From NCBI GenBank assembly GCA_009908505.1, contig JAAAPD010000034.1:1430-65429 (forward strand): a DNA stretch of 64,000 bases. Reading direction: 5' to 3'. The notes below the pieces were generated by a model that saw only the letters and a list, made by a program, of their open reading frames with translations, was not told the DNA's origin and ran no database searches. Positions 4,731 to 23,196 of the stretch are shown piece by piece; the stretch's first letter is position 1; every line of letters starts with the position of its first letter. Made by a program: the position numbers and the translations under genes. Source of the stretch: Alphaproteobacteria bacterium (GTDB taxonomy: Bacteria; Pseudomonadota; Alphaproteobacteria; Rhodobacterales; Rhodobacteraceae).

Positions 4731-6359
4731 ATGAGCAGACCGAATCCAGTCGTTTTGACGGCATTTCTTCTGGGCATACTGGGCCTATTGGGGGGCGCGG
4801 CGCTTCTCAAGGGTGGGCTCTATGTCGGCAAGCACGAAGGCGACACGCTGCACCTGATGCAGATCGTCTTTCGCATGGCCGACGGGCAATTGCCGCATCT
4901 CGATTTCATGACTCCCATTGGCGCGCTGGCCTTCTGGCCCATCGCCCGTCTGGTCGAGGCGGGGCTGGGCATGGGCATGGCGATCCTCTGGTCCCAGGTC
5001 ATCATGGCAACCCTGTTCGTGCCGATCACCGTCTGGGTCGCCTCCAGCCGGCTTGGCCCCAACGTGGCGCTGCTTTTCGGGGCCTTCGTGATGGTGCTGC
5101 TTCTGGCGCTGGTGCATGGCGAGGCGCAGCGCAGCGTGTCGATCTCGATGCATTACAACCGCCTGGCCTGGGCGGCGGCCTTCGTGGTGATCCTGGCCGC
5201 CATTGTTCCGCCGGTGCATCCGCGCTCGGGGCTGGTGGACGGGATCATCATCGGCCTGATGATGGTGATCATGGTGATGATCAAGGTCACCTATTTCGCG
5301 GCCTTCGCGCTACCCGTCGTTGTGGCGCTGTTTTTGAGCGAACAGCGCCGGGCGTTGGCCTGGGCGCTGCTGACCGGCGCGGCTGCGGCCTTGGCAATCA
5401 CGGCTTTCGTCGGGGTGGAATACTGGCTGGCCTATCTTGGCGATCTCGCCACCGTGGCCGGGTCCGAGATCCGCGCTGCGCCAGGAGAGCCCCTCGGGGC
5501 GATCCTGGGGGCCCCGGCCTATATCGGCGGATCGCTGGTGGCCGTCGCCGGGGTGATCCTGTTACGGCAGGCGCGGGTCGAGACCGGGGGGCTGGTCCTG
5601 CTGCTGCTGTTGCCGGGGTTCTTCTATGTCACCTTCCAGAATTTCGGGAACGACCCGCAATGGCTGATGCTTGTGGCGGTGTTGCTTCTGGCCATGCGCC
5701 CCGGATCGGACAAGGTGCTGCGCAACGGTTTCGGCTGGCCCCTGCGCGAGGCGCTGGGCGTCACCGCCGCCATGGCCCTGGCCCTGTCGGCGCCGTCCTT
5801 CTTCAACCTGGCCTACAGCCCTTTGCGCCACCTCAAGCTCGATACTGCGGAGTATACGCCGCTCTTGCCGCGGGGCGGGGTGCATGCCGACCTGCAATCC
5901 ACCAAGTTGCGGGTGGACAGGGTCTATACCCGGGTCGCGCTGGACGGGCCCGACAGCATGCTGGCCTCTTTCGGCGCGCCGGGCGTCGACAGCGACCCGG
6001 CCAGCTTCAGGGGCGAGACATTCGAGCAATGCTCGGTCGAGCTGGGCCTGCCAACGGTGATGGACACGATCGTACGTGACCTCGAAAAGGCCGGGTTGGC
6101 AGAGGGCAAGAGCCTGTTCGCCGCCGACATCTTCAGTTCGCATTGGCTGTTCGGCGAGTTGGAGCCGTTGCAGGGCGGCGCGCCATGGTACTACGGCGGG
6201 CTGCCGGGCTGGGACGATGCCGATTACCTGTTGATCCCGCTCTGCCCAGTCGTGCCGGACGTGCGGGCCCGTATCCTGACCGTGATCGAGGAGCAGGGGG
6301 CCGAGGGCCTGGTCGAGATCCGCCGAACGCCGCTCTACGTTCTCTATTCCAAAGGGTGA
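4731..6359 (+). CDS. Polytopic membrane protein (543 codons); candidate GT-C-fold glycosyltransferase
   Basis: About 11-13 hydrophobic segments followed by a soluble C-terminal domain. First loop carries EGD and GQLPHLDFMTPIG. Start ATG 4731 follows AGAGGCAGGC. The transferase function is inference. Confidence 0.7.
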   Translation: MSRPNPVVLTAFLLGILGLLGGAALLKGGLYVGKHEGDTLHLMQIVFRMADGQLPHLDFMTPIGALAFWPIARLVEAGLGMGMAILWSQVIMATLFVPITVWVASSRLGPNVALLFGAFVMVLLLALVHGEAQRSVSISMHYNRLAWAAAFVVILAAIVPPVHPRSGLVDGIIIGLMMVIMVMIKVTYFAAFALPVVVALFLSEQRRALAWALLTGAAAALAITAFVGVEYWLAYLGDLATVAGSEIRAAPGEPLGAILGAPAYIGGSLVAVAGVILLRQARVETGGLVLLLLLPGFFYVTFQNFGNDPQWLMLVAVLLLAMRPGSDKVLRNGFGWPLREALGVTAAMALALSAPSFFNLAYSPLRHLKLDTAEYTPLLPRGGVHADLQSTKLRVDRVYTRVALDGPDSMLASFGAPGVDSDPASFRGETFEQCSVELGLPTVMDTIVRDLEKAGLAEGKSLFAADIFSSHWLFGELEPLQGGAPWYYGGLPGWDDADYLLIPLCPVVPDVRARILTVIEEQGAEGLVEIRRTPLYVLYSKG

Positions 6360-6363
6360 CCCG

Positions 6364-6870
6364 TCAGCCCTGGAACAAGGGGTGCGCGAGATAAAGGATC
6401 AGCGTCACACCCAGCGGAAACCCCATGGGAAATCGCCGCTTTTCCGTCCAGCTTTGCCAATGCGGAACCAGGTTGCGGATGGCCGGGATGGCGCGGCAAA
6501 GGCGATGCACCGCGAAGGCCGCGATGAAGCTGGTCGCCAGCAGGAAAAGTACCGCCCAGGCATCCTGCACCGCCACGAAGGGCGCGGCCGAGGCGATGAA
6601 TTTGCTGTCGCCGGCCCCCATCGCGCCGATCGCGTTCAGCGCCATGCCGATTACCAGCACCACACCGAAATGCGCGAACCGCATAACGTAGTCGGGCCAG
6701 AATGGCATCAGGAAGATGCCCACGACGACGAAGATCAGCGCCAGCAGGTCCGTGGACCAGGTGGGAATCTTCATCGCGCGCAGGTCGTTCCAGGCGATGT
6801 AGAGGCACAGCGGCGCGACGAAGGGCAGGAACCAGGCGGCCTGTGTCGCGGTCAGGGATGTTTCGACCAC
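6364..6870 (-). CDS. cpaA: Prepilin peptidase, A24 family (CpaA/TadV)
   Basis: Catalytic Asp motifs WNDLRAMKIP and GAGDSK; several TM helices; last gene of the Tad run. Confidence 0.9.
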   Translation of the reverse strand: MVETSLTATQAAWFLPFVAPLCLYIAWNDLRAMKIPTWSTDLLALIFVVVGIFLMPFWPDYVMRFAHFGVVLVIGMALNAIGAMGAGDSKFIASAAPFVAVQDAWAVLFLLATSFIAAFAVHRLCRAIPAIRNLVPHWQSWTEKRRFPMGFPLGVTLILYLAHPLFQG

Positions 6871-6874
6871 GGGA

Positions 6875-7732
6875 TCAGTTCGTCACGTTGTCTTCAAGTG
6901 CCCGGAGTGACCGTGCCGCGGCCTCGAAATGCTGCGGATGGGTGTCGATCGCCTCGCGCAGCAGGCCGCGCCCGGTTGTGACGTCGTTCTGCTTGATCGC
7001 GGTCAGGGCCATCGTGTGCAGAAGTTGGGCGCGCTCGACCTGGCTCATGGGAATGACGGGCAGGTCGTAGTTGCGCTGCGCACCGCGGGCCATGACCAGG
7101 TTGTTCTTGGCCGTGAAAAGGTCGCGGTCGTTCTGGATCGCGTCCAGGAACAGCTCTTCCGCACCGGCATAATCGCCGCGGGTCAGCTTGGAAAAGCCCC
7201 AGTTGTTGTAGACGCCGCCCGGGCGCGTCGTCAGGCCCGCTGCGGTTTCATAGAAGCTGTCAGCGTTGTCCCATTCCTCGTTGCTGTCGGCGACCATCGC
7301 CTCGAGGCGGTACCGTTCATAGGTCTCATGCGTGGGCGGGATCGCGTCGAGCACCTGTTCGGCGCGGTCCCACTGGTTCGTACGGATCAGCGCATCGGAA
7401 AGGTCCACCTGGTCGTCCAGGGTGCTGTCCTCATGATCGGTCACATCCGTCCAGGCGGCCACGGCCCGGTCATAGTCCCGGGCCCGCACAAGCGATTTCG
7501 CCAGCCCGCGCATCAGGTCGATCCGGCCGGGATCGTTGGCGCTGGCGCGGGAAAAGTAGCTCACTGCCTCGTCGGGGTCTCCGACCGTCAGCATCACGTC
7601 GTTGAGGTTGGTTTCATCGACGACGTTCACATCCTGCAGGGCGCGGTTGACCTGGGCCTCGCCCGACCGGTCACAGGCCGCCAGCAACATCGCCCCCAAA
7701 AGGGCTGTGGAGAAAAGGATAGGGTGGCGCAT
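6875..7732 (-). CDS. tadD: TPR lipoprotein, TadD-like secretin pilotin
   Basis: Lipobox LAAC after a hydrophobic signal; TPR-like helices; YNNWGFS..RGDY..AE..F motif. Confidence 0.75.
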   Translation of the reverse strand: MRHPILFSTALLGAMLLAACDRSGEAQVNRALQDVNVVDETNLNDVMLTVGDPDEAVSYFSRASANDPGRIDLMRGLAKSLVRARDYDRAVAAWTDVTDHEDSTLDDQVDLSDALIRTNQWDRAEQVLDAIPPTHETYERYRLEAMVADSNEEWDNADSFYETAAGLTTRPGGVYNNWGFSKLTRGDYAGAEELFLDAIQNDRDLFTAKNNLVMARGAQRNYDLPVIPMSQVERAQLLHTMALTAIKQNDVTTGRGLLREAIDTHPQHFEAAARSLRALEDNVTN

Positions 7733-7761
7733 GGTTTTGCGTCCTTTTTCTGCTCTTGCCT

Positions 7762-8322
7762 CTAGGGTCCGCCCAGCAACAGGTAATCCCCGGTGCCGCG
7801 TCGAACCAATTGGAACTGTTCGCTCTCTTGTTGGCCAGAATAGCCCGGGTTTTCCAGTTTTGCGAGGGCCAAGCGCAAGTTGTCGCGAATCAGGTCGGAA
7901 TCGCCATTATCCGTTGCATAGGCGCGACGAAATAACTGCGCTGCCTCGGCGATTTCACCGCGTTCCATGAGGATGACGCCAAGGTTGTTCCAAGCCGGAA
8001 CGAAGCTGTCGTCCTTTTCCACGGCGCGGCGCAACAAGCCCTCGGCCTGGTTCAGACGGCCCAGCCGCAGGTTGGCCGACCCCAGCGCCGACAGGGTGTC
8101 CACGTTCAGACCCTGGCGTCCGGCGGCGCGGGTATAGGCCTGAAGCGCCAGTTCGAATTCGCCTGCCGCCATCAGCCTGTGGCCCACGGTCAGCCCGTCG
8201 ACATCCGCCTCGCCGGCAATGCCGGGCGCAAAGACCCGGTCGCCGGTGGGCGTGAAACCGCGCGGGCCGCAGGCCGCCAGGGCGCAGCAAAGGGCGATGA
8301 TCCAAAGGGTGCGGCGCGTCAT
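7762..8322 (-). CDS. Second TPR lipoprotein of the Tad locus
   Basis: Lipobox LAAC; TPRs (ALGSANLRLGRLNQAE, AWNNLGVILMERGEIAEA). Start moved to ATG 8322. Confidence 0.8.
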   Translation of the reverse strand: MTRRTLWIIALCCALAACGPRGFTPTGDRVFAPGIAGEADVDGLTVGHRLMAAGEFELALQAYTRAAGRQGLNVDTLSALGSANLRLGRLNQAEGLLRRAVEKDDSFVPAWNNLGVILMERGEIAEAAQLFRRAYATDNGDSDLIRDNLRLALAKLENPGYSGQQESEQFQLVRRGTGDYLLLGGP

Positions 8323-8418
8323 GAGTTGGGCTGCTCGGCCTGTCTGCTCTTGTCGTCTTGTTGGTGCATGGGTTGCCGAAAGCGCCCGGAGTTTCAAGAA
8401 GAATACCCGAGACAGGCG

Positions 8419-8445
8419 AAAACCGCCCGCGTGCGGGCGGTTTTT
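8419..8445 (-). terminator. Intrinsic terminator-like hairpin after tadC
   Basis: AAAACCGCCCG-cgtg-CGGGCGGTTTT perfect stem with T-runs on both strands. Confidence 0.65.
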
Positions 8446-8462
8446 GCCACGTCGGGTGCGCC

Positions 8463-9443
8463 TCAGAAGTTGGCGTTCGAAAGCGTTACGTAGATGTTGT
8501 AGACCGACGGGCCGATCAGGATGATCAGCAGCGGCGGCACCGTCAACATCATGGTCGCCAGCGTCATCTTGGTGGGCAGGGTGTTGGCCTTTTCCTCGGC
8601 CCGCATGACCCGCTTGTCGCGCATCTCGGCCGAGAAGACCCGCAGCGCCTCGGCGATCGAGGTGCCGAATTGCTGCGACTGGATCAGAACGGTGACGAAG
8701 CTGGCGATATCGGACACGCCGGCGCGTTCGGACATGTCGCGCAGAACCTGGGTCTTGTCCTTGCCGGCCTTCATCTCGTTGGCGACGATCTTGTATTCCT
8801 CGGCCAAGGCAGGAAAGCCCGATTCCAGTTCACGCGACACCCGGATGATGGCCTGGTCCAGCGACTGGCCCGCCTCGACGCAGACCAGCATCATGTCCAG
8901 GCTGTCGGGAAAGCCGTTGACCATCTGTTCCTGGCGTTCCTGCTGGCGCCGGTTGACCCAGTATTTGGGCAGCATGTAACCCACCACGCCCGGCAGCAGG
9001 ATCGAGATGATCGTCGCCCTGGTCGTGGGATCACCGGTGGAAGAGGCGTAGATCGCATAGGCCACGCCCAGGACCAGCAAACCGATACCGAGGGCGAACT
9101 GCGCGAAGTGATACATCCGCACGGCGTTCTTGCTGCGATAGCCCGCCTGAACCAGTTTCAGCTGGATCGAGGAGAATTCTTCCTGGTCCTGGGGTTCGAG
9201 AAAGTTGGAGTATTTCTCCAGCTTGTCCTTGCCCCCGCCCATGCGCAGCTTGGTGCCTTCCTTGGCGACCATGGCGGCCTGGTTGGCGGATTTGAGTTTC
9301 TCAAGCGGATCCTCTTCCTTTTTCAGAAGGGCCGGCAGGACCAGAAGGATCAGAAGGACCCCCAGCATGCCGATCACCATGAGAGGCCCGAACGGGCCCA
9401 GCATGTCGATCAGCATTTGGTTGATGGTGTCGAGAATCTGCAT
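8463..9443 (-). CDS. tadC: Tad platform protein TadC (T2SSF family)
   Basis: FPDSLDMMLVCVEAGQSLDQA, QSQQFGTSIAEALR and AEEKANTLPTKM. Confidence 0.92.
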   Translation of the reverse strand: MQILDTINQMLIDMLGPFGPLMVIGMLGVLLILLVLPALLKKEEDPLEKLKSANQAAMVAKEGTKLRMGGGKDKLEKYSNFLEPQDQEEFSSIQLKLVQAGYRSKNAVRMYHFAQFALGIGLLVLGVAYAIYASSTGDPTTRATIISILLPGVVGYMLPKYWVNRRQQERQEQMVNGFPDSLDMMLVCVEAGQSLDQAIIRVSRELESGFPALAEEYKIVANEMKAGKDKTQVLRDMSERAGVSDIASFVTVLIQSQQFGTSIAEALRVFSAEMRDKRVMRAEEKANTLPTKMTLATMMLTVPPLLIILIGPSVYNIYVTLSNANF

Positions 9444-9451
9444 GGGACCCC

Positions 9452-10420
9452 TCAGACCTTGATGTTCACGAGACGGCGCATGACGATCACGTTGGCCACC
9501 AGGAAACCGGCCACGACCAGTGCGGCCGGGATGAAGGCCGACGTTTCGCGCACGTCGTCATAGTAATTCGGCTGGATCACGTTGATCATGACCAGCGCCA
9601 CGATCGGGAAGCCGGACAGGAACATGCCCGACCATTTCGCCTCGGCGGTGATGGCCTTGACCCTGCGGAACAGCTTGAATCGCGCCCGGATCACCTTGGC
9701 CAGGCCGTCGAGGATCTCGGCCAGGTTGCCGCCCGCCTGCTGCTGGATCGCCACCGCGACGGCCAAAAAGCGCAGATCCTGCATGTCGATGCGTTCGGCC
9801 ATGGCCTTGAGCGTTTCGCCCATGTCTCGGCCATAGGCCGCCTCGTCCGAGATCACGCCCATTTCGGAACCCAGCGGGTCCGGCACTTCCTTGGCCACGA
9901 TGGCCACGGCCGAGCTGAACGGGTGACCGACGCGCAACGACCGGACCATGAGTTCCACTGCGTCGGGCAGCTGTTCTTCCAGCATGGCCATGCGCTTTTT
10001 GGCCTTCGAATTGATCCAGACATAGACACTGCCCACGCCCATGGCGACCGCCACGGCCAACCGCACCGGCGCCGCCGCCGTGGTGCCGAAGGTCAGCGCG
10101 AAAAAGGCCACGCCCGACAGGACGCCCATGAGGATCATCAGCTGCGTCGGGGTGAAGGCGATGTTGGCCTTCTGGGCCTTGTTCGCCAGAAGCGAGTAAA
10201 GCGGGATCTTCTGGCTTTGCAGATGCTGGGTCATCTCCTTGCGGAGCTGTTCGAGCACTTCCTCGCGGTTGTTGCCCTTCTCCAGCATTTCCAGCCGGCG
10301 GTTGACCCGATTGTTGAGGCTGATCGACTTGCCGAAGGCGACAAGGTAGATGCCGTTCACCAGCACCAGGATCGAGATGAAGATCAGGCCATAGATGATG
10401 GGTTCTGCTGAAATCGTCAT
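9452..10420 (-). CDS. tadB: Tad platform protein TadB (T2SSF family)
   Basis: QLPDAVELMVRSLRVGHP, IQQQAGGNLAEIL and AITAEAKWS. Confidence 0.92.
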   Translation of the reverse strand: MTISAEPIIYGLIFISILVLVNGIYLVAFGKSISLNNRVNRRLEMLEKGNNREEVLEQLRKEMTQHLQSQKIPLYSLLANKAQKANIAFTPTQLMILMGVLSGVAFFALTFGTTAAAPVRLAVAVAMGVGSVYVWINSKAKKRMAMLEEQLPDAVELMVRSLRVGHPFSSAVAIVAKEVPDPLGSEMGVISDEAAYGRDMGETLKAMAERIDMQDLRFLAVAVAIQQQAGGNLAEILDGLAKVIRARFKLFRRVKAITAEAKWSGMFLSGFPIVALVMINVIQPNYYDDVRETSAFIPAALVVAGFLVANVIVMRRLVNIKV

Positions 10421-10421
10421 G

Positions 10422-11873
10422 TTACTGCGCCGCCACGGGTTCGAAGATTTGCGCGGGCAGGTCGTAACCCCAGAGCTTGAACCGCTCGGAGAAGTGCGAC
10501 CGCACGCCGGTGGCCGTGAAATGGCCGATGATCTTGTTGTCGGGGGTCAGGCCAACGCGCTGGTAGCGGAAGACCTCCTGCATCGAGATAACGTCGCCTT
10601 CCATGCCCGTCACCTCGGTGATCGAGACCATGCGGCGTGACCCGTCCTGCAGGCGGCTGACCTGGACGATCAGATGGACGGCGCTGGCGATCTGGCTGCG
10701 TACCGCCTTGAGCGGCATCTCGATCCCGGCCATGGCGACCATGTTCTCCAGGCGGCTGATGGCGTCGCGGGCGTTGTTGGCGTGGATGGTGGTCATCGAT
10801 CCGTCGTGGCCGGTGTTCATGGCCTGAAGCATGTCGATGACTTCCTCGCCGCGCGTTTCGCCGACGATGATGCGGTCGGGGCGCATCCGCAGGGCGTTCT
10901 TCAGACAGTCGCGCTGGCTTACCCCGCCCTTGCCCTCGACATTGGGTGGGCGGCTTTCCATCCGGCCGACATGGGTCTGCTGCAACTGCAGTTCGGCGGT
11001 GTCCTCGATCGTCAGGATGCGCTCGGAATCGTCGATGAAGGACGACAGCGCGTTCAACGAAGTCGTTTTACCCGAACCGGTCCCGCCCGACACGATCACG
11101 TTGAGGCGGGTCGAGACGGCGGCCTGCAGGAAGGCGGCCATTTCCTCGGAGAACGCGCCGAAATTCACCAGATCCTGGATGCCCAGCTTGTCCTTGGTGA
11201 ATTTCCGGATCGACACCAGAGACCCGTCCACAGCGATGGGTGGCACCATGGCGTTGAAACGCGACCCGTCGGCAAGGCGGGCGTCGACATAGGGGTTGGA
11301 TTCGTCCACGCGCCGACCCACGGCCGACACGATCTTGTCGATGATCCGCAGCAGGTGGCGTTCATCCTTGAAAGTGATGTCCGTGAGTTCCAGCTTGCCG
11401 CCGCGTTCCACGAAGATCTGCTTGGGGCCGTTGACCAGGATATCGTTGACCTTGTCGTCCTGAAGCAGGGTCTCCAGCGGGCCCAGGCCCTTGACCTCGA
11501 AAAACAGTTCTTGCGAAAGGGTGCTGCGTTCCTCGCGGTTCAGGACAACGCCCATATCCTCGAGCGTTTCGGTCGCGATTGCGTTGATCTCGGCCTTGAG
11601 GTCCTTTTCCGACGCCTGTTCGAGCGCGGCAAGGTTCAGGTTCTCCAGCAGTGCCTTGTGCAGTTCCAGCTTGACCTCGCCCAACTTCTCCTTGCGCTTG
11701 ATTTCCTTGTCCTTCGGAACAGGCTGCGCAGCGGTCGTGGGCGCGGCCTTCATCAAGGGCTTCTTGGGGGCGTCAGGGGCCGGGGCGGCCTCGCGCGCAT
11801 CCGGGGCGGCCTCGGGGGCCGGGGCAGGGGCAGCCTTTGGGGCCGGTGCCGTCTTTTTGTACTTCGAAAACAT
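10422..11873 (-). CDS. cpaF: Tad assembly ATPase CpaF/TadA
   Basis: Walker [32 protein letters not shown] and [15 protein letters not shown]; Pro/Ala-rich N-terminus. Confidence 0.95.
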
Positions 11874-11885
11874 CTGGCGGACTCC

Positions 11886-13124
11886 TTATGCGGTTGCCGC
11901 GTCCTCGGACACGTTGTGTTCATGCACCGACGTGGCCAGCTTCAGGATTTCCTTGCGCAAGGGGTTCTTGGGCAGCCCCTCGGCCAGGGGCACGCCATGG
12001 TCGGCATTCTGTGCCACCGGGCGGCCGCCATCGGGCATCTGCACCTCGATCGAGATGCCGAGGCTTTCCGACAGGCGCTTGATCCGGCTCTTTCCGTTCA
12101 GGTCGGTGAATTTCGGTGCGCGGTTCAGCACGAAGCGGAGTTTTTCGAAGGGCAGTTGTTCGGCCTGCAGCGCACGTTTGACGCGCAGCGTGTTCTGCGC
12201 CGACCGCATGTCCAGCTCAAGCGTGGCGAAGTAGACATGCGCCGCGTTCAGGACGGTCTCGGTCCATTCCACGAAGGTCTTGGGCATGTCGATGACCACG
12301 TAGTCGAAATTCACCCGCGCGGTTTCGATCAGCCGGGTGATATCCTCGGAGGTGACAAGATCCAGCGGGATCAGGTCCGTCGGCGCTGTCAGGACGTGGA
12401 GCTTTTCCTCGAAGCCCAGAAGGGCCTGCATGAAGCTCTCGCTGTCCATGGTTTCGGTATCCTGCAGAAGCTCGAACACCGATTCCCGCCGCGGCAGATC
12501 AAGAAACGTCGAGGTGCTGCCAAACTGGAAATCCAGGTCAATCAGGCAGACCCGCGGCGCTTTGGTCTTATCGATATTGGCGAGTTCCCAGGCAATGTTG
12601 ACGGCCAGGGTGGTGGCGCCGGTGCCGCCGGCCATGCCCTGGATGGGGATCACCACGCCGCTGCGATCATCGGTGGCCTTGAGCACCGTCGGCGTTTCGG
12701 GGGCGGGCGGCTCGGGCGGGGAAAGGACCCGTTCGACCGCTTGGGCCAGTTCGCCTTCGGGCAGCGGGTAGGGGACGAATTCGTCGCCGCCTTCGCGCAG
12801 CAACATGTGCAGCGACGCCGGAGAGACCTCTTCGCCGATGATGATGATACTGCGGATTGATCGGGCCTTCGCAGCCCGGACGATATCGACGATCAGGCCG
12901 ATTTCGCCTTCGTCCTCTTCGTCCAGCGCGATGGCGAGGAATTCCAGCTCTTCGGCCTCGGGCTGTTCGAGGAAGGCCAGGGCATCCTCGAATCCCAGAT
13001 CGCCCCAGCTTTCACCCATGCAGGTTTCCATGTCCTCGATCAACAGGTCGAAATTCTGCACGTCACGGCTGACGGTGCAGGCCGTGATCGGTTGCGGGTC
13101 TGGCTGCAGCATTGCACTACTCAT
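11886..13124 (-). CDS. cpaE: CpaE/TadZ pilus localisation protein (receiver-like domain + MinD-like ATPase)
   Basis: Deviant P-loop GMAGGTGATT, LIDLDFQFG and DYVVIDMP; located upstream of cpaF. Confidence 0.88.
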   Translation of the reverse strand: MSSAMLQPDPQPITACTVSRDVQNFDLLIEDMETCMGESWGDLGFEDALAFLEQPEAEELEFLAIALDEEDEGEIGLIVDIVRAAKARSIRSIIIIGEEVSPASLHMLLREGGDEFVPYPLPEGELAQAVERVLSPPEPPAPETPTVLKATDDRSGVVIPIQGMAGGTGATTLAVNIAWELANIDKTKAPRVCLIDLDFQFGSTSTFLDLPRRESVFELLQDTETMDSESFMQALLGFEEKLHVLTAPTDLIPLDLVTSEDITRLIETARVNFDYVVIDMPKTFVEWTETVLNAAHVYFATLELDMRSAQNTLRVKRALQAEQLPFEKLRFVLNRAPKFTDLNGKSRIKRLSESLGISIEVQMPDGGRPVAQNADHGVPLAEGLPKNPLRKEILKLATSVHEHNVSEDAATA

Positions 13125-13343
13125 GCCTGGTTCCGTCCTTCTTTACCTGGCCCGTCTCTTTGAACTGCGCGGGGCCGATTGCTCGTAATCTTCGGACCCT
13201 GTCTCAAGACGTACTCGGGGCCGTGATGGCGTTGAAATTCACTGAGAAACATGTCGAGAATTGGGCCGAAATTCCGCCATTGTGCGAAATCATGCGACGA
13301 TCACGCAGCGACGCGTTCTCTGTTTCCGGGACGTCGCAAAGAA

Positions 13344-14105: not shown

Positions 14106-14116
14106 GGCCTCGCTCC

Positions 14117-15544
14117 TCAATTGTCCATGACGTAGCCATAGGACCCGCTGAAGTCCTGGCGCGCCACTTCGCCGGCGCCGCCCGAGCTGGGGGCGTTCTC
14201 CGATGCGACCCGGCCGAAAAGGAACAGGTCGCGTTCCGAGGGCGGGCGGACCCGGTCCGTCGGCAGGGCCAGCGCCTCGCCACGGGTCGGTGTCACCAGG
14301 TGCGGTGTGACGATGATGACCAGTTCGGTCTGCTGGCGCGAATATTCGGCGCTGCGGAACAGCGCGCCCAGCACCGGGATATCGCCCAGCCACGGAACCT
14401 GGCCGTTCAGGTCGGTGAAGTCATCCGACAGCAGCCCGGCGATGGCGAAGCTTTCGCCGTCGCGCATCTCGACCGTGGTCGAGGTCTCGCGGGTGCTGAA
14501 GGCGTCGATGGAAAAGCCGCTCTGGTTGAAGCCGTTGGTCGGATCCAGTGCGCTGACCGAGGCGTTGAGTTCCAGGTTGATCACATCGCCGTCGATAACC
14601 CTCGGGATGAAGTTCAGCTCGATGCCGAAGGGCTTGTATTCCACGGTGATCGTGTCGTCGTCCTGGGCGATCGGGATCGGGTATTCGCCGCCAGCCAGGA
14701 ACCGCGCCTCCTGGCCCGACAGGGCGGTCAGGTTCGGTTCGGCCAGGGTGCGGACCACGCCGCGCTGCTCCAGGGCCTCCATCAGGATCCCGACCTCGAG
14801 GCCGCCGGCATTGAACCCGAAGAGCATGGCGCCCTGGTTGTCGTTCGACCCCGGAAGTGCGCCGCTCAGGGCGCCGGTGCGGCCGCCCTCGGTCACGGTG
14901 GTGCCGGTGCCGCCGGCCGTGCCGAGGTCGCCGCCCAGAAGATCGCCGCCGATGGCGATGGAAGAGCTGAGCTGTTTCGACACCGAGCGCTGCATCTCGG
15001 CAAAGCGCACCCGCAGCATGACCTGCTGGGTGCCGCCGACGCTCATCAGGTTGGACACGCGCCCGGCCGCATAGCGTTCGGCCAGTTGCAGGGCCCGGTC
15101 CAGCCGCGCCGACGAGCTGACCGTGCCGGACAGCACGATACCGTCATTGGCGGTACGCACCTCGATGGGCTCGCCCGGCAGGATCTGTTCCAGACGTTCC
15201 TTGAATTCCGCGATATCGGGTGTGACGTGGATTTCCACGTTGGTGATCAGCCGCCCGTCGCCGCCCAGAAGGGTCAGCGTTGTGCGCCCCGGCTCCTTGC
15301 CCAACACGTAGATGGTGCGTTCCGAAAGCGACGAGATGTCGGCGATACCGGGATTGGCGATCGACAATTCACTGAACGGAACGTCGCTTTCGACCACCAC
15401 GGCCCGGTTCATGGGCACGTTCAACGCCCGTGAGGGTGAGCCGCTCATGACCCGAAGGGTTTCGGCCGGCGACATCGAGGGCGCCGCCATGAATATAAAG
15501 GAAAGCCCGGCAAGGGCTGCCTTGAAAAGTGTCTTTAATGTCAT
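14117..15544 (-). CDS. cpaC: Tad secretin CpaC/RcpA
   Basis: Signal peptide, BON-like region, QVMLRVRFAEM, AEPNLTALSGQEARFLAGGEYPIP, PWLGDIPVLGALFRS and ELVIIVTP. Start moved to ATG 15544. Confidence 0.95.
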   Translation of the reverse strand: MTLKTLFKAALAGLSFIFMAAPSMSPAETLRVMSGSPSRALNVPMNRAVVVESDVPFSELSIANPGIADISSLSERTIYVLGKEPGRTTLTLLGGDGRLITNVEIHVTPDIAEFKERLEQILPGEPIEVRTANDGIVLSGTVSSSARLDRALQLAERYAAGRVSNLMSVGGTQQVMLRVRFAEMQRSVSKQLSSSIAIGGDLLGGDLGTAGGTGTTVTEGGRTGALSGALPGSNDNQGAMLFGFNAGGLEVGILMEALEQRGVVRTLAEPNLTALSGQEARFLAGGEYPIPIAQDDDTITVEYKPFGIELNFIPRVIDGDVINLELNASVSALDPTNGFNQSGFSIDAFSTRETSTTVEMRDGESFAIAGLLSDDFTDLNGQVPWLGDIPVLGALFRSAEYSRQQTELVIIVTPHLVTPTRGEALALPTDRVRPPSERDLFLFGRVASENAPSSGGAGEVARQDFSGSYGYVMDN

Positions 15545-15740
15545 GTGACCTGCCTCTCGATCACGCCCAAAGGAGGGCATTTTTGCCCGTTATTGATACG
15601 ACCCTGCACTGAATTGGCTTTTATTGCAAGAATCAATGCTGTGGGTGCGTCTCTTCATGTGGATAACCAGCAACATCTGCCGAAACGCGAAGGCCCGGCC
15701 CCAAACGGGACCGGGCGCGGCATGATGCATTGGATGCCGC

Positions 15741-16607
15741 TCAGTTGGTGCAGGGAATGACCACCTCGACCTGTTCCGTCCCGCGGTTCTGGCGGATCGT
15801 GCAGACGCGTTCCTGTTCGACCGGTTCGGGCTCTTCGCGCGGTGTGATGCCCAGCAGCGTGGCCTGGTTTACCTCGATCTGGCTTGTCAGGTCCGACGGC
15901 GGACCGTCACCCACAAGGGCCAGCGACAATTCACCTGACCCTTGCGCGGTAGCGAGCGCGGCCACTTGTCTACTGTCGGCTTCGACGGTGACGGTGCGCA
16001 CCCTTTCCGATGCCGAGGACCGCCCGCTATCGGTGCTCTGGTCGACGGCGACGATGGTCAGGCCGCTCTGGATCAGGCGGGTGGTGACACCGTTGGTGCC
16101 GCCCATGTCGCCAAGGTTGACCTGGCCGGTCCAGTAGACGTCGACCCGGTCACCCGGCCGCAGGAAGCCGGACACGGCCGAGCGCACGTTCACGTCGATC
16201 GCATAGGCCTGCATACCAGGCGTCAGAAGGGCATTGATGCCAGCGCTTTCGCCGGGTGCCGTGACCTTGACGGCCATCAGCGGTTCGTTCGGTTCCATCT
16301 GGCGCACGGCGACGCGCAGCTTCTCGGGACCGTCGGGAAAGAATTCCTCCTGGGTGCGGAAAACACCCTCGGGCAGGAAGGGTTCGGCATGCTTGATGAT
16401 GACGACATCTTCCGGCGTGATCTGTTGCCCGTATTCCACCGTGCGGTTCACGGCGAGCACATCGACCGTGGGCGCATTCTGGGCCATGGCGGCGCGCTGG
16501 GCCGCGAGTTGGGCATTCTGTTGTTCGAAATAGCCCTGGACCATGTAAATGGCCGCGCCTGCCAAGCCGACCCCGATGACCAGGACAAGACCAAATACTG
16601 CTCGCAT
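15741..16607 (-). CDS. cpaB: Flp pilus assembly protein CpaB/RcpC
   Basis: N-terminal TM, SAF domain, SAVSGFLRPGDRVDVYWT, TVTVEA and LSLAL. Start ATG 16607. Confidence 0.92.
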   Translation of the reverse strand: MRAVFGLVLVIGVGLAGAAIYMVQGYFEQQNAQLAAQRAAMAQNAPTVDVLAVNRTVEYGQQITPEDVVIIKHAEPFLPEGVFRTQEEFFPDGPEKLRVAVRQMEPNEPLMAVKVTAPGESAGINALLTPGMQAYAIDVNVRSAVSGFLRPGDRVDVYWTGQVNLGDMGGTNGVTTRLIQSGLTIVAVDQSTDSGRSSASERVRTVTVEADSRQVAALATAQGSGELSLALVGDGPPSDLTSQIEVNQATLLGITPREEPEPVEQERVCTIRQNRGTEQVEVVIPCTN

Positions 16608-16649
16608 CGTCTTTCCTTTCGGTTGCGGTGCCTCTGCGACACCCACTCA

Positions 16650-17876: not shown

Positions 17877-18725
17877 ATGCGGCGCAGTATGATATTGGCC
17901 GGGCTTGTCGGCCTGACCGTGGCCACGGGCGGCCGCGCAGAGCAAGACAGGCTACAACCGGATTTCACCTTCAAGCGGGTCGGCGTACCGCCCGCTGGCG
18001 CCACCAATCGCATCAACGTGCAGATCGCACCGGGCGCGCCATCGGGACCGTCTGCGCCGCCATCGGCCGGCCAGGCCGCATCGCAGAGCCCGCGCGCGCC
18101 CGCCATTTCCGGGCTTGCCCCGGCCCCGTCCGAGGTCGCCTGGTTCTGGGAGGCGGTCTCGCCCAGCCTGGACCTGTCCAGCCCGGCCAGCCACGTGGCC
18201 GCCGAAAATGCCCTTCTCAATGCGCCCGATGACGCGGCGGTGCCGCAACCGCGGCTTCAATCCATGAGCGAACTGGCGGCGCGCTACGGGGTCGAGATCC
18301 TTGCCGCCTCGATCGGCAAGGAGGTATCCCCGGCCCTGGTCCTGGCGGTGATCTCGGTGGAGAGCGCCGGCAAGTCCGACGCGGTCAGCCGTGCGGGCGC
18401 CCGGGGCCTGATGCAGCTTATGCCTGCGACCGCCGAACGGTTCGGGGTTCGGGACAGCTTCGATCCGGGGCAGAACATCGCCGGGGGCGTGGCCTACCTG
18501 GACTGGCTGATGAGAGAGTTCGACCGCGACCTGCTGATGGTCCTGGCCGGCTACAATGCCGGTGAGGGAGCCGTGAGGGACAACAACGGTGTGCCGCCCT
18601 ATGCCGAAACGCGGGCCTATGTGCCCAAGGTCCTGGCCGCTTGGCAGGTGGCGCGGGGGCTGTGCATCACGCCGCCCGAACTGCCGACCGATGGCTGTGT
18701 CTTTAACGTGAATTCGGAGGGCTGA
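17877..18725 (+). CDS. Lytic transglycosylase (SLT domain), divergent from the flp genes
   Basis: Signal peptide; AVISVES (catalytic Glu), GARGLMQLMPAT, LAGYNAGEG and YAETRAYV. Start moved to ATG 17877. Confidence 0.9.
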   Translation: MRRSMILAGLVGLTVATGGRAEQDRLQPDFTFKRVGVPPAGATNRINVQIAPGAPSGPSAPPSAGQAASQSPRAPAISGLAPAPSEVAWFWEAVSPSLDLSSPASHVAAENALLNAPDDAAVPQPRLQSMSELAARYGVEILAASIGKEVSPALVLAVISVESAGKSDAVSRAGARGLMQLMPATAERFGVRDSFDPGQNIAGGVAYLDWLMREFDRDLLMVLAGYNAGEGAVRDNNGVPPYAETRAYVPKVLAAWQVARGLCITPPELPTDGCVFNVNSEG

Positions 18726-18726
18726 G

Positions 18727-20151
18727 ATGTCCGGCAAGCCGCTGGTCGTGGACGCGGATGGCACCCTGTTGCGCACCGACATGTTGCTGGAATGCGCCTG
18801 GAAGGGGTTGGGCACCGACCCGCACGGCATGTTGCGGGCGGTGGGCCGCCTGCCGGACCGGGCGGCGTTCAAAGCCGAGCTGGCCCGTATCGCGCCGTTG
18901 AGGATCGATCTGCTGCCGGTCCACGAAGAGGTGGTGGCGCTGGTCGAACGGGCCAAGGCGGAGGGGCGCGAGGTCGTGCTCGCCTCGGCCTCGGACAGGG
19001 CGCTGGTAGAGCCGCTGGCCCGGCGGTTCGGCTTTGACCGGGTCTTCGCGTCGAATGGCGGCGAGAACCTGAAGGGCGCCGCCAAGGCACGTGCGCTGGT
19101 CGAGGCCTATGGCGAACAGGGGTTCGACTATGCCGGCAACGATGTCTCGGACATGGAAATCTGGCGCCACGCCGATCACGCCATCGTCGTGGGCAAGGCC
19201 GGCGGGGCGGCGCAGAAGCTGGACGCGCCCACCCGGATCGACGGCGGCTGGACACCCCGCGCCCTGGTAAAGGCGCTGCGGCCGCATCAATGGGTCAAGA
19301 ACGTGCTTCTGTTCCTGCCGATGATCGCGGCCCATGCCTTCTATTTCGACACCTTCCTGCGGGTGTGCCTGGGGATCGTGGCCTTTTCGGCGGCGGCCTC
19401 GACCATCTATATCGTCAACGACCTTCTCGATATCGAGTCCGACCGGCAGCATGCCACAAAGAAAAAGCGCCCCTTCGCGGCCGGAACCGTGCCGATCCCC
19501 GTTGGCATGGCCGCCTGCCTTGTGCTGGCGACGGTGGCGCTGGGGCTCGGGGCGGCGCTGTCCTGGCACATGTTCGGAGTGGTGGCCTTCTACATGGCGC
19601 TCTCGCTGGCCTATTCGCTGCGCCTCAAGCGCCTGCGCTGGATCGACATCGCGACGCTGGCCTCGCTTTATACGTTGCGGGTTGTGGCCGGGGCCGCGGC
19701 CAGCCAGGTCTATGCGTCGGTCTTCATGCTGATCTTCATCTTCCCGATCTTCCTGACGCTGGGCTGCGTCAAGCGGATGACCGAACTGGCGCTGGCCCCC
19801 GATGACAAGCCGCTGCCCGGCCGTGGATATGCGCGGGGCGACCGGGGCGACCTGCTCAACATGGCGGTGCTGGGTATGGTGGGCGCCTTGGTGATCTTCT
19901 TCCTGTATTCCTGGTCGGACCAGGCGCGGATCCTCTACCCCGATCAATGGCTGCTCTGGGTGGCGCTTTTGCCGATCGCCGCCTGGCTCTACCGCATGAT
20001 CCGGCTGGGCTATTTCGGCAAACAGGATTATGACCCCATCGTCTTTGCCCTGCGCGACATTCGCGGCATCGGCTACCTGCTGATCACCCTGTCGCTGATG
20101 TTCTATGCCGCCGGTCTGTGGACCGAATGGTATTTCCGTCTGTTGGACTAG
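18727..20151 (+). CDS. HAD-UbiA fusion; decaprenyl/polyprenyl-phosphate phosphoribosyltransferase-like (DPPR synthase)
   Basis: N-terminal HAD motif VVDADGTL; LRPHQWVKN; UbiA motif YIVNDLLDIESDRQH..K..RPFAAG; many TM helices; C-terminal DPIVFA. Confidence 0.85.
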   Translation: MSGKPLVVDADGTLLRTDMLLECAWKGLGTDPHGMLRAVGRLPDRAAFKAELARIAPLRIDLLPVHEEVVALVERAKAEGREVVLASASDRALVEPLARRFGFDRVFASNGGENLKGAAKARALVEAYGEQGFDYAGNDVSDMEIWRHADHAIVVGKAGGAAQKLDAPTRIDGGWTPRALVKALRPHQWVKNVLLFLPMIAAHAFYFDTFLRVCLGIVAFSAAASTIYIVNDLLDIESDRQHATKKKRPFAAGTVPIPVGMAACLVLATVALGLGAALSWHMFGVVAFYMALSLAYSLRLKRLRWIDIATLASLYTLRVVAGAAASQVYASVFMLIFIFPIFLTLGCVKRMTELALAPDDKPLPGRGYARGDRGDLLNMAVLGMVGALVIFFLYSWSDQARILYPDQWLLWVALLPIAAWLYRMIRLGYFGKQDYDPIVFALRDIRGIGYLLITLSLMFYAAGLWTEWYFRLLD

Positions 20152-20888
20152 ATCGACATCTTCTTGAAGAGAGGTTCGGGAATGGCGCGGATCACCGTCA
20201 TGATCGGCCACCAGATGCGCCGGGTGTAGAGCACGTTCTTGCCGCGCTTGACCCCGGCCAGGATATCATCGGCCACCGCTTCTGCGGTTGTCATGAAGGG
20301 CAGGTCGTCCATGCCCTGCGTCATGGCGGTGTCCACCGGGCCGGGTTTGACCGTCATCACGTGCACGCCCTCGCGGCCCAACCGGTTGCGCAGGCCTGAC
20401 AGGTAGGTGGCAAAGCCCCCCTTGGCCGCACCATAGACATAATTGCCGATCCGGCCCCGGTCCCCTGCGACCGATCCGACGCCCACGATCGTGCCCGATC
20501 CGCGCGCCTCCAGGTGCGGGGCAAGCATCTGCAGGAACCGGGCGGGGCCGGTGAAACTGTCGGCGATAACGCCATCCAGCATGGCCGGGTCGGCGTCGAT
20601 CTCTTCCTGGGGCGGCATGGAGCCGACGAAAACCGCGCAATTGATCTGGCCGGCCTGTTTCAGGGCCAGGTCGATCACCGGCTGAAAACTGTCCGGGTCG
20701 CGCGCATCGAAGGCAACGGGTTCGGCCATGGTGGCGCCCCGCGCCAGCGCGTCGGTCGCATTGGTGCTTAGGTCATCCAGCCGACGCCCGGCCAGGATCA
20801 GCCCCGCGCCCTGTTCGGCCAGTTTCTGCATGAAAGCCCGCGCCATGGTCGAGCTTGCCCCCAGGATGATCCAGGTCTGTTCCATCAT
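20148..20888 (-). CDS. SDR oxidoreductase, DprE2-like
   Basis: ILGASSTMARA, GSVAGDRGRIGNYVYGAAK (YxxxK) and VKPGPVDTAMT; coupled to the DprE1-like gene. Confidence 0.82.
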   Translation of the reverse strand: MMEQTWIILGASSTMARAFMQKLAEQGAGLILAGRRLDDLSTNATDALARGATMAEPVAFDARDPDSFQPVIDLALKQAGQINCAVFVGSMPPQEEIDADPAMLDGVIADSFTGPARFLQMLAPHLEARGSGTIVGVGSVAGDRGRIGNYVYGAAKGGFATYLSGLRNRLGREGVHVMTVKPGPVDTAMTQGMDDLPFMTTAEAVADDILAGVKRGKNVLYTRRIWWPIMTVIRAIPEPLFKKMSI

Positions 20889-22192
20889 GTCCTCCGCAGG
20901 CCCAAACGCCGGACCATGTCTGTTGAAAGTGTCTCGTCCGGGTCCGCCTTAGCGACTTGGGCCGCCCAGTCCGGATGTTCGGGATACATCGCCTTGACGC
21001 GCGGCCCGGTCGCCAGTGCGTCCTTGGCAAGGTAGATGCGGCCACCGGCGGCGACCGTTCGATCCTCGAGCCGGGCGACCAGGTCGTGCGCGGCGTCACG
21101 ATTTGGGAAGTCCACCGCCAGCGTGTAGCCTTGCATCGGGAAAGACAGGTAACCGGCGCGCCCATCCCCCATGCGTTTCAGCACCGCCAGCGGCGAGGCG
21201 AGGCCGCTTTCGGCGATCTCGGCCAGCATCGTGCGCAGGGCCTCGGCCTGGTCCAGGGGCACCACACATTGGAACTGGTGAAAGCCGCGCTTGCCGTAAA
21301 GCCGGTTCCAGTCGTGGATCTTGTCCAGCGGAAAGAAGAAATCCTCGAAGGCGCGCACGACGGTCCGGCCGGATGCGGGCACCCTGTGATAATAAAGACT
21401 GTTGAAGGCCCGCACGATGGGCCCGGACAGTGCCCAGGCCGGCGCGTCCAGCGGCACGCTGCGCCGCCTTGGCCGGGCCGGGGGCAGGCCACGCCCGATC
21501 TCTGCCTCTTCAAGGATGCCGCGGCCCAGCCTGTCGCCGGTCGCGGTGGCGTCGATCCAGCCCACGCAATAGGTCGCGTCCGACGCATCGAGATGGGCGA
21601 TATGCTCGGCCCAACCCTCGACCCGGCGCTCGGTCACGACCATGACCTCGCCGGGGCAGGGTTTCAGCTGTAGCGTGACCTGGGTGATCACCCCGGTCTG
21701 GCCCAGCCCGCCGCAGGTGGCGGCCCAAAGCCGCTTGTCCCGGTTTGGCGTGATCCGGCGCATCTCGCCGTTCTGCAAAAGGGTCAGGGCGGTCACGTGT
21801 TGGCAGAAACTGCCGCTGCGGTGGTGGTTCTTGCCGTGTACATCCATGGCCACGGCACCGCCCACGGTGGCAAAGCCCGTGCCGGGCATGACGGGCGGCA
21901 CCCAGCCTTGTGGCGGCAGGATCCGGGCCAGTGTGCCGAGGGTCACGCCCGCCTCGACGGTGATCAGTCCGGTCTTGCGGTCAAAGGCGGTGATCCGGTC
22001 CTGCGCGGTCATGTCCAGCGCCGCACCGCCATCGTTGAGTGGCGCATCGCCATAGGATCGCCGGTTGCCGAAGGCCGGGGCGGCGGTGTCGATCTCGTGT
22101 GCGGTGACGGGGCGTGCGACGCGGCCCGTGGCGGTCAGCGCCCGGCCCCAGCCGGCATAGGAAATGTCCTTGCGCCAACGCATCGCGATCAC
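20885..22192 (-). CDS. FAD-binding oxidoreductase, DprE1-like
   Basis: GNRRSYGDAPLN, PGTGFATVGGAVAMDVHGKNHH, FHQFQCVVP, GYTLAVDF and GGRIYLAKD. GTG start at 22192 overlaps the upstream stop; ATG 22183 is the alternative. Confidence 0.88.
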   Translation of the reverse strand: MIAMRWRKDISYAGWGRALTATGRVARPVTAHEIDTAAPAFGNRRSYGDAPLNDGGAALDMTAQDRITAFDRKTGLITVEAGVTLGTLARILPPQGWVPPVMPGTGFATVGGAVAMDVHGKNHHRSGSFCQHVTALTLLQNGEMRRITPNRDKRLWAATCGGLGQTGVITQVTLQLKPCPGEVMVVTERRVEGWAEHIAHLDASDATYCVGWIDATATGDRLGRGILEEAEIGRGLPPARPRRRSVPLDAPAWALSGPIVRAFNSLYYHRVPASGRTVVRAFEDFFFPLDKIHDWNRLYGKRGFHQFQCVVPLDQAEALRTMLAEIAESGLASPLAVLKRMGDGRAGYLSFPMQGYTLAVDFPNRDAAHDLVARLEDRTVAAGGRIYLAKDALATGPRVKAMYPEHPDWAAQVAKADPDETLSTDMVRRLGLRRT

Positions 22193-23196
22193 CCCTGCGC
22201 CCGCGCCGCACTGCGTTCGGCCAACGGAAAGACCGCAAGCCCGATGGCGATGGCGAACCACAGCGTCGTCAGGCGGATCACAGCGGTGGCGGGAATCGAT
22301 ACCTCGAGCGGGACGCCCTCCAGGGACAGCAGCGCGACCATCGCCGCCTCGGCGCCGCCGACACCGCCGGGTGCGCCGGTCAGGCCGCCGGCCAGCGTGG
22401 CGAAGGTGAAGATGCCCATGGCCGTCCACAGGCCGATATCCGCCCCCATCCAGCCCAGAAGAAGGTGAAAGGCATAGCCCTCGGCGCCCCAGCCGATCAG
22501 GCCCAGCAAGATCGACAGCGAGAGGGTCGAGCCGGTCGAGAAAACAGCCAGGGACCGCGCCGCGCCGCGCACTCGCCCCAACAGGCGCGGCAGCAGGCCC
22601 GTGATCCGGTAGGCCCATGTGACGCCCCCGGCCAGAAGGCGCGGGCGCGTTGCGACCCAGGCCGCGGCAAGGGCCAGAAAGGCGACCGGGATGGCCAGTT
22701 TCGCGCCCCCCGCCGACAGGCCCACGGACAGCGCCAGGATCAGCGCCATGGCGGCCAGGTCCGAGGCGCGATCAACCAGCACCAGCGGCGCGGTCCGTTC
22801 CACGGCCCAACCGGTTTCGCGTTTCAGCCAGCGCATGCGGATCAATTCGCCCACGCGCCCCGGCGTCACCGACATGGCAAAGCCGCCCAGGAAATGCCGG
22901 ATGTCCTGAACCAAGCCCGTCGGCAGACCAAGGCGCCGGGCAAAAAGATGCCAGCGCGCGCCGCGAAACAGGTAGTTCACCAGGCTCAGCGCCAGCAGGA
23001 TCGCAACCTGTGCCCCGGTTAGGCGCATCAATTGATCTCGGGTTTCGGCCCATCCGGTTGCAGCGGCAAGCCCGGCCAGGCCCGCGATGACGACCGCGAA
23101 CAGCCCGGCCAAAAGGGCGATATCGCGCCAACGTCGGGCGGCGGCGCGCGGCGCGGGCGAGGCCGCCGCGGGTTGCGGAGAAATTGACATGCTCAT
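22189..23196 (-). CDS. Lysylphosphatidylglycerol-synthase TM-domain (YbhN/flippase-like) membrane protein
   Basis: RGARW, TPGRVGELIR, LVDRASDL, PGGVGGAEAAM and RLTTLW motifs; about 8 TM helices. Confidence 0.8.
   Translation of the reverse strand: MSMSISPQPAAASPAPRAAARRWRDIALLAGLFAVVIAGLAGLAAATGWAETRDQLMRLTGAQVAILLALSLVNYLFRGARWHLFARRLGLPTGLVQDIRHFLGGFAMSVTPGRVGELIRMRWLKRETGWAVERTAPLVLVDRASDLAAMALILALSVGLSAGGAKLAIPVAFLALAAAWVATRPRLLAGGVTWAYRITGLLPRLLGRVRGAARSLAVFSTGSTLSLSILLGLIGWGAEGYAFHLLLGWMGADIGLWTAMGIFTFATLAGGLTGAPGGVGGAEAAMVALLSLEGVPLEVSIPATAVIRLTTLWFAIAIGLAVFPLAERSAARAQG

Follow-up and report, generated by a model that had tools for sequence, protein, structure and literature searches.

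The 64-kb window analysed here (64,000 nucleotides of contig JAAAPD010000034.1, assembly GCA_009908505.1, with a G+C content of about 64%) stems from a marine member of the Rhodobacteraceae and carries the genes for a Tad/Flp pilus. In Pfam searches of the window, the full tad set was found on the minus strand, with genes for a lipid-linked sugar donor at one flank and a gene for a polytopic protein of the glycosyltransferase C (GT-C) type at the other. Based on sequence comparisons, this arrangement is tentatively read as a glycosylation island that is accessory to the Tad/Flp pilus locus of Rhodobacteraceae. In its full form, to which we assign a probability of roughly 0.4, the proposal is that of the first dedicated Tad/Flp glycosylation system: an unclassified GT-C enzyme would O-arabinosylate the Flp pilin of about 47 residues with D-arabinofuranose (D-Araf) provided by a HAD-UbiA fusion protein, DprE1-like and DprE2-like enzymes and an MprF-like flippase, and the system would be dispensable and repeatedly lost.

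The donor genes encode relatives of the mycobacterial enzymes that synthesize decaprenyl-phosphoryl arabinose (DPA), not proven equivalogs. The DprE1-like oxidase aligns over its full length with DprE1 of M. smegmatis and M. tuberculosis (4aut, E 3.7e-77). Its segment RIYLAKDA aligns to mycobacterial RLYTAKDS and keeps the lysine that is catalytic in the mycobacterial enzyme, and an alanine is found at the position of mycobacterial Cys394, the target of benzothiazinones (BTZ). The UbiA domain has structures of Rv3806c as its sole PDB matches (8j8j/8j8k, E 5.9e-29), and its Asp-rich motif NDxxDxxxD is conserved, with NDLLDIESDRQH aligning to NDVRDVEADREH of Rv3806c. For the short-chain dehydrogenase/reductase (SDR) encoded at 20148-20888, the sole PDB match at E <= 1e-15 is DprE2 (21gq_C, E 1.9e-26). 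These PDB searches, in which the mycobacterial enzymes are the best or only solved relatives, uphold the original prediction that the genes encode relatives of decaprenyl-phosphoryl-5-phosphoribose (DPPR) synthase, DprE1 and DprE2. In addition, the fusion protein scores 505 bits on NF006088, a model of the HAD-UbiA type, which is above its cut-off.

Several observations count against D-Araf as the product and favor a different sugar, in which case the DprE1/DprE2-like pair would make another 2-epimer or a keto-pentose, or would use another polyprenyl-phosphate sugar. The NCBIfam equivalog cut-offs are missed by all three enzymes: the DprE1-like protein reaches 370 of the required 500 bits on NF053785, the DprE2-like protein 159 of 250 bits on NF053786, and the fusion protein stays below the cut-offs of the DPPR-synthase models. 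All three share only moderate sequence identity with their mycobacterial counterparts. HAD-UbiA is also missing from the locus in one sublineage, and three genomes (G149, G056 and G107) keep uninterrupted, full-length DprE1 and GT-C genes at the tad locus, in G149 (locus L085) together with an intact DprE2 and flippase-like gene, while no UbiA/DPPR-synthase-like gene was found in these genomes at E <= 1e-5. We nevertheless regard a different sugar as improbable, given that a DPA enzyme is the best or only solved relative of each protein, that the aligned lysine and the UbiA Asp-rich motif are conserved and that the gene set equals the D-Araf set of Pseudomonas aeruginosa.

Two further steps of the pathway are assigned to less typical proteins. 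In mycobacteria, the 5-phosphate is removed by a separate PAP2 phosphatase (Rv3807c). No Rv3807c-like PAP2 phosphatase gene was found in the locus, and this job may be done by the HAD domain that is fused to the N-terminus of UbiA and contains a DADGT motif. The putative flippase scores 139 bits on PF03706 (cut-off 33) and 82 bits on TIGR00374 (cut-off 43), and aligns to the N-terminal part of the MprF model (positions 3-302 of 841). Its gene is always contiguous with DprE1-DprE2 in related loci, and this conserved operon linkage makes the protein a candidate flippase for the polyprenyl-phosphate sugar.

The gene at the opposite flank, 4731-6359, encodes a protein whose predicted structure has a GT-C fold of an unclassified family. 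An AlphaFold model built from 40 homologues (pLDDT 87.6, pTM 0.88) comprises about 11-13 transmembrane (TM) helices followed by a C-terminal alpha/beta domain of roughly 170 residues. A Foldseek search of the PDB returned AftA (8if8) and ArnT (5f15/5ezm) as top matches with a probability of 1.00 and TM-scores of 0.41-0.47, and the next matches (STT3, AftB, ALG3, DPY19, AftD and EmbB) are likewise all GT-C enzymes. Thus, what had been described as GT-C-like from the letters of the DNA is confirmed by model and structure search. At the sequence level, no match was obtained in Pfam (even at E <= 5), NCBIfam or the PDB; homologues in the Rhodobacteraceae (797 matches) bear varying labels, including hypothetical protein, DUF2029 and RgtA-D-like.

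Conserved positions of this protein cluster in two regions. The loop after the first TM helix reads K34-H35-E36-G37-D38, and among the 40 homologues G37, D38 and H41 are invariant and E36 nearly so. D38, for which a catalytic role is predicted, is retained in a distant homologue from another alphaproteobacterial family (genome G430). Two cysteines, C434 and C505, are invariant in the same homologues and both belong to the C-terminal domain; such a pair would fit a periplasmic location of this domain. When modelled alone (pLDDT 85), the C-terminal domain had no Foldseek match in the PDB at E <= 0.001 and therefore provides no clue to the acceptor. The genome contains one copy each of the GT-C module and the donor module, and a GT-C enzyme of the PMT_2 type was not found in it. 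The 4731-6359 product is best described as a candidate polyprenyl-phosphate-arabinose-dependent transferase.

The functional connection between the two flanks was assessed in 201 Rhodobacteraceae genomes, representing about one per genus, with orthologous (class-1) DprE1 defined by at least 48% identity. The GT-C gene is present in 68 genomes and class-1 DprE1 in 62, all 62 of which also possess GT-C (contingency table 62/0/6/133, Fisher p = 2e-45). Just six of the 139 genomes without class-1 DprE1 have any GT-C match, weak partial or full-length, and at least three of these six (G039, G119 and G153) have a paralogous DprE1 elsewhere (40-47% identity). Some genomes show GT-C adjoining tadV without a local DPA module. 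GT-C genes with no DPA module nearby are also found in G039 and G153, which contain a paralogous (class-2) HAD-UbiA/DPA cluster elsewhere in the genome.

The two modules behave as separate insertions or deletions (indels) on opposite flanks of tad, one between tadV and the AAA+-like ATPase gene and the other between topA and the SLT lytic transglycosylase gene. In module-free loci, tadV adjoins the AAA gene with gaps of 36-290 nt and SLT adjoins topA. Most loci in which both flanks are visible have both modules or neither; the exceptions are L014, L023 and L056 with GT-C only and L041 with only part of the DPA module. By parsimony on the tad and flank trees, 6-8 changes of presence or absence are required, compared to about 23 with shuffled labels. 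Such changes separate Yoonia/Loktanella from Octadecabacter, Palleronia sp. from P. pontilimi, Roseicyclus from Albidovulum, and Shimia abyssi and S. biformata from S. ponticola, and the large Ruegeria/Sulfitobacter/Roseovarius clade is a further example. Repeated joint loss of two distant modules is strong comparative evidence that GT-C depends on the donor pathway. A fragmentary locus (G013:C6:403683-419023, from a genome with an estimated completeness of 63%) contains GT-C with four in-frame TGA codons, DprE1 and cpaF, all as fragments, and seems to be decaying as a whole.

When 300 genomes from across the Alphaproteobacteria were scanned with a profile of GT-C, only three weak partial homologues came up outside the family, none of them beside tad. 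In G430, a distant homologue forms one operon with the donor genes in the order HAD-UbiA-DprE1-DprE2-GT-C, and its protein shares the loop-1 signature K..D....GQ.P..DF.T..G.L and the motif GE...S..M.YNR..W. This operon and the 62/62 co-occurrence with DprE1 offer indirect support for a polyprenyl-phosphate sugar as the donor of GT-C. Taken together, the co-occurrence, the joint state changes of separate indels and the G430 operon lead us to regard donor pathway and GT-C as very probably one system.

The position of this system relative to tad was compared in 80 named loci, which display the conserved order TopA-(flippase, DprE1, DprE2, HAD-UbiA)-SLT-flp-cpaB...tadV-(GT-C)-AAA-Lhr. An orthologue of cpaF is present in 171 of the 201 genomes. 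On single contigs of 38 genomes (the source and 37 other genera), GT-C, cpaF and DprE1 follow each other in this order, usually within 14-17 kb, and 13 more fragmented assemblies with split contigs place GT-C about 4 kb from cpaF. Linkage to tad in other genomes, whose absence the original prediction had named as a refutation, is therefore found, and the order GT-C, tad, DPA recurs on single contigs in about 40 genera. Additionally, the SLT gene is a tad-locus gene that occurs in loci with and without glycosylation modules, and HAD-UbiA follows it at a distance of <= 53 nt in 14 of 15 loci. Adjacency of GT-C and tad is kept after a rearrangement in G142; L076 may be a second such case, in which the contig stops before GT-C could be seen. 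Transfer of the whole GT-C-tad-DPA unit between lineages was also considered and found no support, as the tad tree largely matches the flank tree.

Carriers of the modules seldom lack tad: cpaF is missing from 2 of 62 carriers and 28 of 139 non-carriers (p = 0.0008). Both carriers without tad, G167 and G077, show fresh deletion scars. In G167 (L002, G167:C14 10028-11242), a 404-aa chimera combines the first 160 or so residues of DprE2 with the tadV-adjacent TPR protein, the scar of a single deletion of approximately 11 kb in which HAD-UbiA, SLT, flp and cpaB-tadC were lost. In G077 (L003, G077:C1 10759-13283), an element of the IS3 family (rve integrase and orfA) replaces tad, tadV is frameshifted and a TPR remnant persists. 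With scars this fresh, the two genomes are uninformative as counter-examples for independence from tad. On the available comparisons, the odds of an acceptor within the Tad apparatus appear slightly better than even.

Within the apparatus, the Flp pilin is the best hypothesis for the acceptor, at odds that we place a little below even. Three open reading frames (ORFs) of 61 aa present the sequence G/AVTVDW followed by a hydrophobic helix, in which Asp-Trp replaces the Glu-Tyr of the motif G/XXXXEY; the pilins have no match to Pfam Flp_Fap and only weak matches to Flp1_like and DUF4244. The mature N-terminus AVTVDW, with Asp5-Trp6 for the canonical Glu5-Tyr6, is invariant in more than 70 related loci. 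The number of flp copies ranges from 1 to 5 per locus. The argument that the C-terminal halves of Flp pilins carry several Ser/Thr, advanced in the original prediction, does not discriminate and was rejected as a carrier signature: pilin-tail Ser/Thr stands at 29% in carriers and 25% in non-carriers. Pilins of carriers more often end in Thr/Ser plus an aromatic residue (e.g. ...LSAQTIATY), with a C-terminal aromatic ending in 32/50 for carriers and 17/97 for non-carriers, and a KISS.LSAQ-type motif is also commoner among them; as signatures, the aromatic ending and the motif are confounded by phylogeny and not universal. The pilin evidence, as judged from the sequences, is neutral.

With the pilin not singled out by any data on Ser/Thr composition, the linkage evidence would apply equally to another Tad component as acceptor, namely the OmpA-like protein, the TPR proteins, CpaB or the secretin. 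We consider this quite unlikely, since the content and spacing of tad genes are equal with or without the modules and no component is specific to carriers. To our knowledge, there is no precedent for glycosylated OmpA-like, TPR, CpaB or secretin parts of Tad systems. Pilin glycosylation by GT-C enzymes, on the other hand, is established (10.1101/2020.04.19.049825).

A more serious alternative, although still an unlikely one, is a single system of donor pathway and GT-C that serves an acceptor outside the pilus. This could be the lipopolysaccharide (LPS) core or lipid A, a periplasmic or outer-membrane glycan, or several proteins in a general O-glycosylation pathway, with the position at tad being a historical accident in a rigid neighbourhood. 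Several points speak for it or weigh against a system directed at pili. AftA and ArnT, the best structural matches of GT-C, act on glycan or lipid acceptors and not on proteins. The GT-C gene lies outside the tad operon, 10.4 kb from the nearest flp gene. The region from TopA to Lhr is syntenic even in module-free genomes, so that adjacency could persist by inertia, and the tree of the concatenated Tad proteins largely agrees with that of the flanking AAA gene, as would fit a single origin followed by losses. Bracketing may therefore derive from one ancestral event within a region that is syntenic everywhere, which limits its evidential weight. GT-C relatives and paralogous DPA clusters occur in non-tad contexts, such as the G430 operon or exopolysaccharide (EPS) loci with Wzz/Wzx, and G077 keeps GT-C and the four donor genes intact after the loss of tad. 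Pilin composition is not distinctive, and contrasts between pilins of sister lineages disclosed no clear loss of hydroxyl residues. Finally, the cryo-electron microscopy structure of the C. crescentus Tad pilus shows no glycan density (PMC10710030), and glycosylation is therefore not a general Tad feature.

Against an acceptor outside the pilus stands the observation that the coupled modules are split at the exact borders of tad and do not lie together as in G430. Adjacency after rearrangement in G142, the tight coupling of HAD-UbiA to the tad-locus SLT gene and the scarcity of carriers without tad point in the same direction. Furthermore, library scans identified no additional polysaccharide genes (Wzx, Wzy, Wzz or other glycosyltransferases) within the locus.

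For the preferred reading of a pilus-directed system, the following sequence of steps can be proposed. At the cytoplasmic face, the UbiA domain would transfer phosphoribose from phosphoribosyl pyrophosphate (PRPP) onto polyprenyl phosphate, and the fused HAD domain would take off the 5-phosphate. Oxidation by the DprE1-like and reduction by the DprE2-like enzyme would then invert C2' to yield polyprenyl-phosphate-D-arabinofuranose, which the MprF-flippase-like protein may carry to the periplasmic leaflet. At the outer face of the inner membrane, GT-C, with the invariant Asp38 in its first periplasmic loop, would pass the pentose to the acceptor. The likeliest acceptor sites would be Ser/Thr residues in the periplasm-exposed C-terminal half of Flp pilins that are still in the inner membrane, and this modification could be timed around TadV processing, like that of type IVa pilins by TfpW. 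We infer the identity of the sugar, the roles of HAD domain and flippase, the acceptor and a biological role such as masking pili from pilus-specific phages.

The features of the locus are listed below. All core components (cpaB/rcpC, secretin, tadZ/cpaE, tadA/cpaF, tadB, tadC and tadV) are backed by Pfam matches, and ORF and family searches recover the five genes of the original prediction at their coordinates. The polytopic GT-C gene was said to abut the prepilin peptidase gene and does so: it ends 4 nt from tadV, to which it is convergent. The donor genes, described as immediately beside the flp pilins, are located at the flp end but not directly next to the pilins, as the SLT gene (17877-18725) stands between them. 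HAD-UbiA starts 1 nt after the SLT stop, and the flippase-like, DprE1-like and DprE2-like genes form an operon with 4-nt overlaps that is convergent to HAD-UbiA, with topA beyond. The glycosylation genes constitute three transcription units. Shared regulation through a CtrA-type box (TTAA-N7-TTAA, one mismatch) was rejected, as three such boxes occur in the 64 kb with about one expected, and none lies upstream of the GT-C and DPA operons.

Table. Genes of the tad locus and of the flanking putative glycosylation modules; coordinates refer to the window.
Feature	Coordinates	Strand	Basis or remark
AAA+-like ATPase, 445 aa	3274-4611	-	weak AAA_16 matches only
GT-C-fold glycosyltransferase (predicted), 542 aa	4731-6359	+	AlphaFold model and Foldseek
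tadV/cpaA prepilin peptidase (A24)	6364-6870	-	PF01478
TPR protein of tad locus, TadD-like	6875-7732	-	TPR families; kept in all loci compared
Second TPR protein of tad locus	7762-8397	-	
tadC	8463-9443	-	PF00482
tadB	9452-10420	-	PF19360 and PF00482
cpaF/tadA secretion ATPase	10422-11873	-	PF00437
cpaE/tadZ ParA-like ATPase	11886-13124	-	PF13614
OmpA-domain protein of tad locus	13404-14393 (longest ORF)	-	PF00691
cpaC/rcpA secretin	14117-15580	-	PF00263 and PF13629
cpaB/rcpC	15741-16646	-	PF16976
flp pilin 1, 61 aa	16757-16942	-	G/AVTVDW motif and position; mature form AVTVDWVVLTAAIVGLGIGVIAVIAQGATDKSTGLGAHLSNQSIQTF
flp pilin 2, 61 aa	17117-17302	-	tail ...KIEAQLSAQTIATY
flp pilin 3, 61 aa	17335-17520	-	differs from pilin 2 by one residue
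SLT lytic transglycosylase	17877-18725	+	PF01464
HAD and UbiA fusion	18727-20151	+	PF12710 and PF01040; NF006088
DprE2-like SDR reductase	20148-20888	-	DprE2 PDB match
DprE1-like FAD oxidase	20885-22192	-	DprE1 PDB match, full length
MprF-N-domain/UPF0104 flippase-like membrane protein, 335 aa	22189-23196	-	PF03706, TIGR00374

The longest ORF of the OmpA-domain gene runs into the 3' end of cpaC, and its true start is probably near position 14110. The AAA+-like ATPase is 69-87% identical across all related loci and stands directly downstream of tadV, in the same direction, where GT-C is absent; it may be a member of the tad operon that became separated from tadV by an oppositely oriented GT-C gene. 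Further insertions were seen in individual loci: in Histidinibacterium aquaticum, about 2.7 kb of inserted sequence separates tadB from tadC (L015 11684-14434), and in the metagenome-assembled genome UBA9292, an insertion of about 2.4 kb separates tadV from GT-C (L073 14040-16529).

Tad/Flp pili serve adhesion and occur widely; in roseobacters, they are linked to association with surfaces and phytoplankton. Should Flp be the acceptor, D-Araf glycosylation of pilins would no longer be confined to one Pseudomonas lineage but would also cover a large marine group and the simplest pilin known. The locus would then represent a further variant of the TfpW type of pilin arabinosylation, establish a new GT-C family that can be recognised by its loop-1 signature and offer a concrete candidate for a flippase of polyprenyl-phosphate-arabinose. 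Its 6-8 independent changes would provide a natural presence/absence series for roles of pilin glycans in phage evasion, adhesion and pilus stability, and repeated loss is as expected of a surface-masking trait driven by phages or grazers. Even with another acceptor, about 30% of Rhodobacteraceae genera would have an arabinose glycoconjugate that depends on DprE1/DprE2 and appears to be undescribed.

A study of tad genes in Rhodobacterales leaves these flanking genes unmentioned (PMC8383342). Literature searches yielded nothing relevant on Flp arabinosylation or on decaprenylphosphoryl in combination with Roseobacter, and no dedicated glycosylation system for Tad pilins or published equivalent was found, in agreement with the earlier statement that no arabinosylated Tad pilus is known to have been described in Rhodobacterales. 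Known systems that share parts of this gene set can be compared. The DPA pathway of mycobacteria and corynebacteria, with AftA-D and EmbA-C as transferases, contains the proteins closest in sequence to the three enzymes, and AftA is the best fold match of GT-C. In contrast to mycobacteria, the host is a Gram-negative marine alphaproteobacterium with a single GT-C and no arabinan machinery, in which a HAD fusion takes the place of Rv3807c, the BTZ-target Cys is replaced by Ala and scores fall below the NCBIfam equivalog cut-offs. Within the Alphaproteobacteria, the noeCHOP genes of Azorhizobium caulinodans, which are of the DprE1/DprE2/UbiA type, supply D-arabinose for the Nod factor; here, the acceptor is a lipo-chitooligosaccharide and the genes belong to the nod cluster, with no link to a pilus.

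Class-2 HAD-UbiA/DprE1/DprE2 clusters of other Rhodobacteraceae and Alphaproteobacteria contain the same trio at 35-47% identity, some with a distantly related GT-C in which the loop-1 motif is kept. These clusters differ in being EPS-type loci or a self-contained operon unlinked to tad, and the flippase-like gene was not seen in one such operon that was examined (G430). They were found in about 19 other genera, in the context of Wzz/tyrosine-kinase and Wzx-like genes and other polytopic proteins; L087 (G004:C2) 7517-14647 and L086 (G178:C11) 5662-9694 are examples. This points to arabinose-type polysaccharides in the Rhodobacteraceae with no relation to tad.

The closest known system is the TfpW-dependent one of P. 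aeruginosa, in which D-Araf is added to group IV pilins by TfpW together with a DPPR-synthase homologue, DprE1 and DprE2 (PsPA7_6245-6251), and for which no dedicated polyprenyl-phosphate-arabinose flippase has been identified (10.1101/2020.04.19.049825). Both systems follow the same donor logic and use the same enzyme class, and the acceptor proposed here is also a type IV-class pilin. The pilus classes differ, as the Tad/Flp pilins of about 47 residues are devoid of a globular domain and the TfpW system acts on type IVa pili. Compared by description, TfpW has 646 aa with a periplasmic TPR C-terminal domain and a DDX loop motif, whereas the GT-C described here has 542 aa, an alpha/beta C-terminal domain without a PDB relative and an EGD loop motif. 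The 5-phosphate would be removed by a fused HAD domain instead of a PAP2 enzyme, and the flippase candidate is MprF-flippase-like instead of GtrA-like (6247). Finally, tfpW is found directly downstream of the pilin gene and its donor genes are unlinked, whereas in the Rhodobacteraceae locus GT-C lies beside tadV and the donor genes flank the pilus locus.

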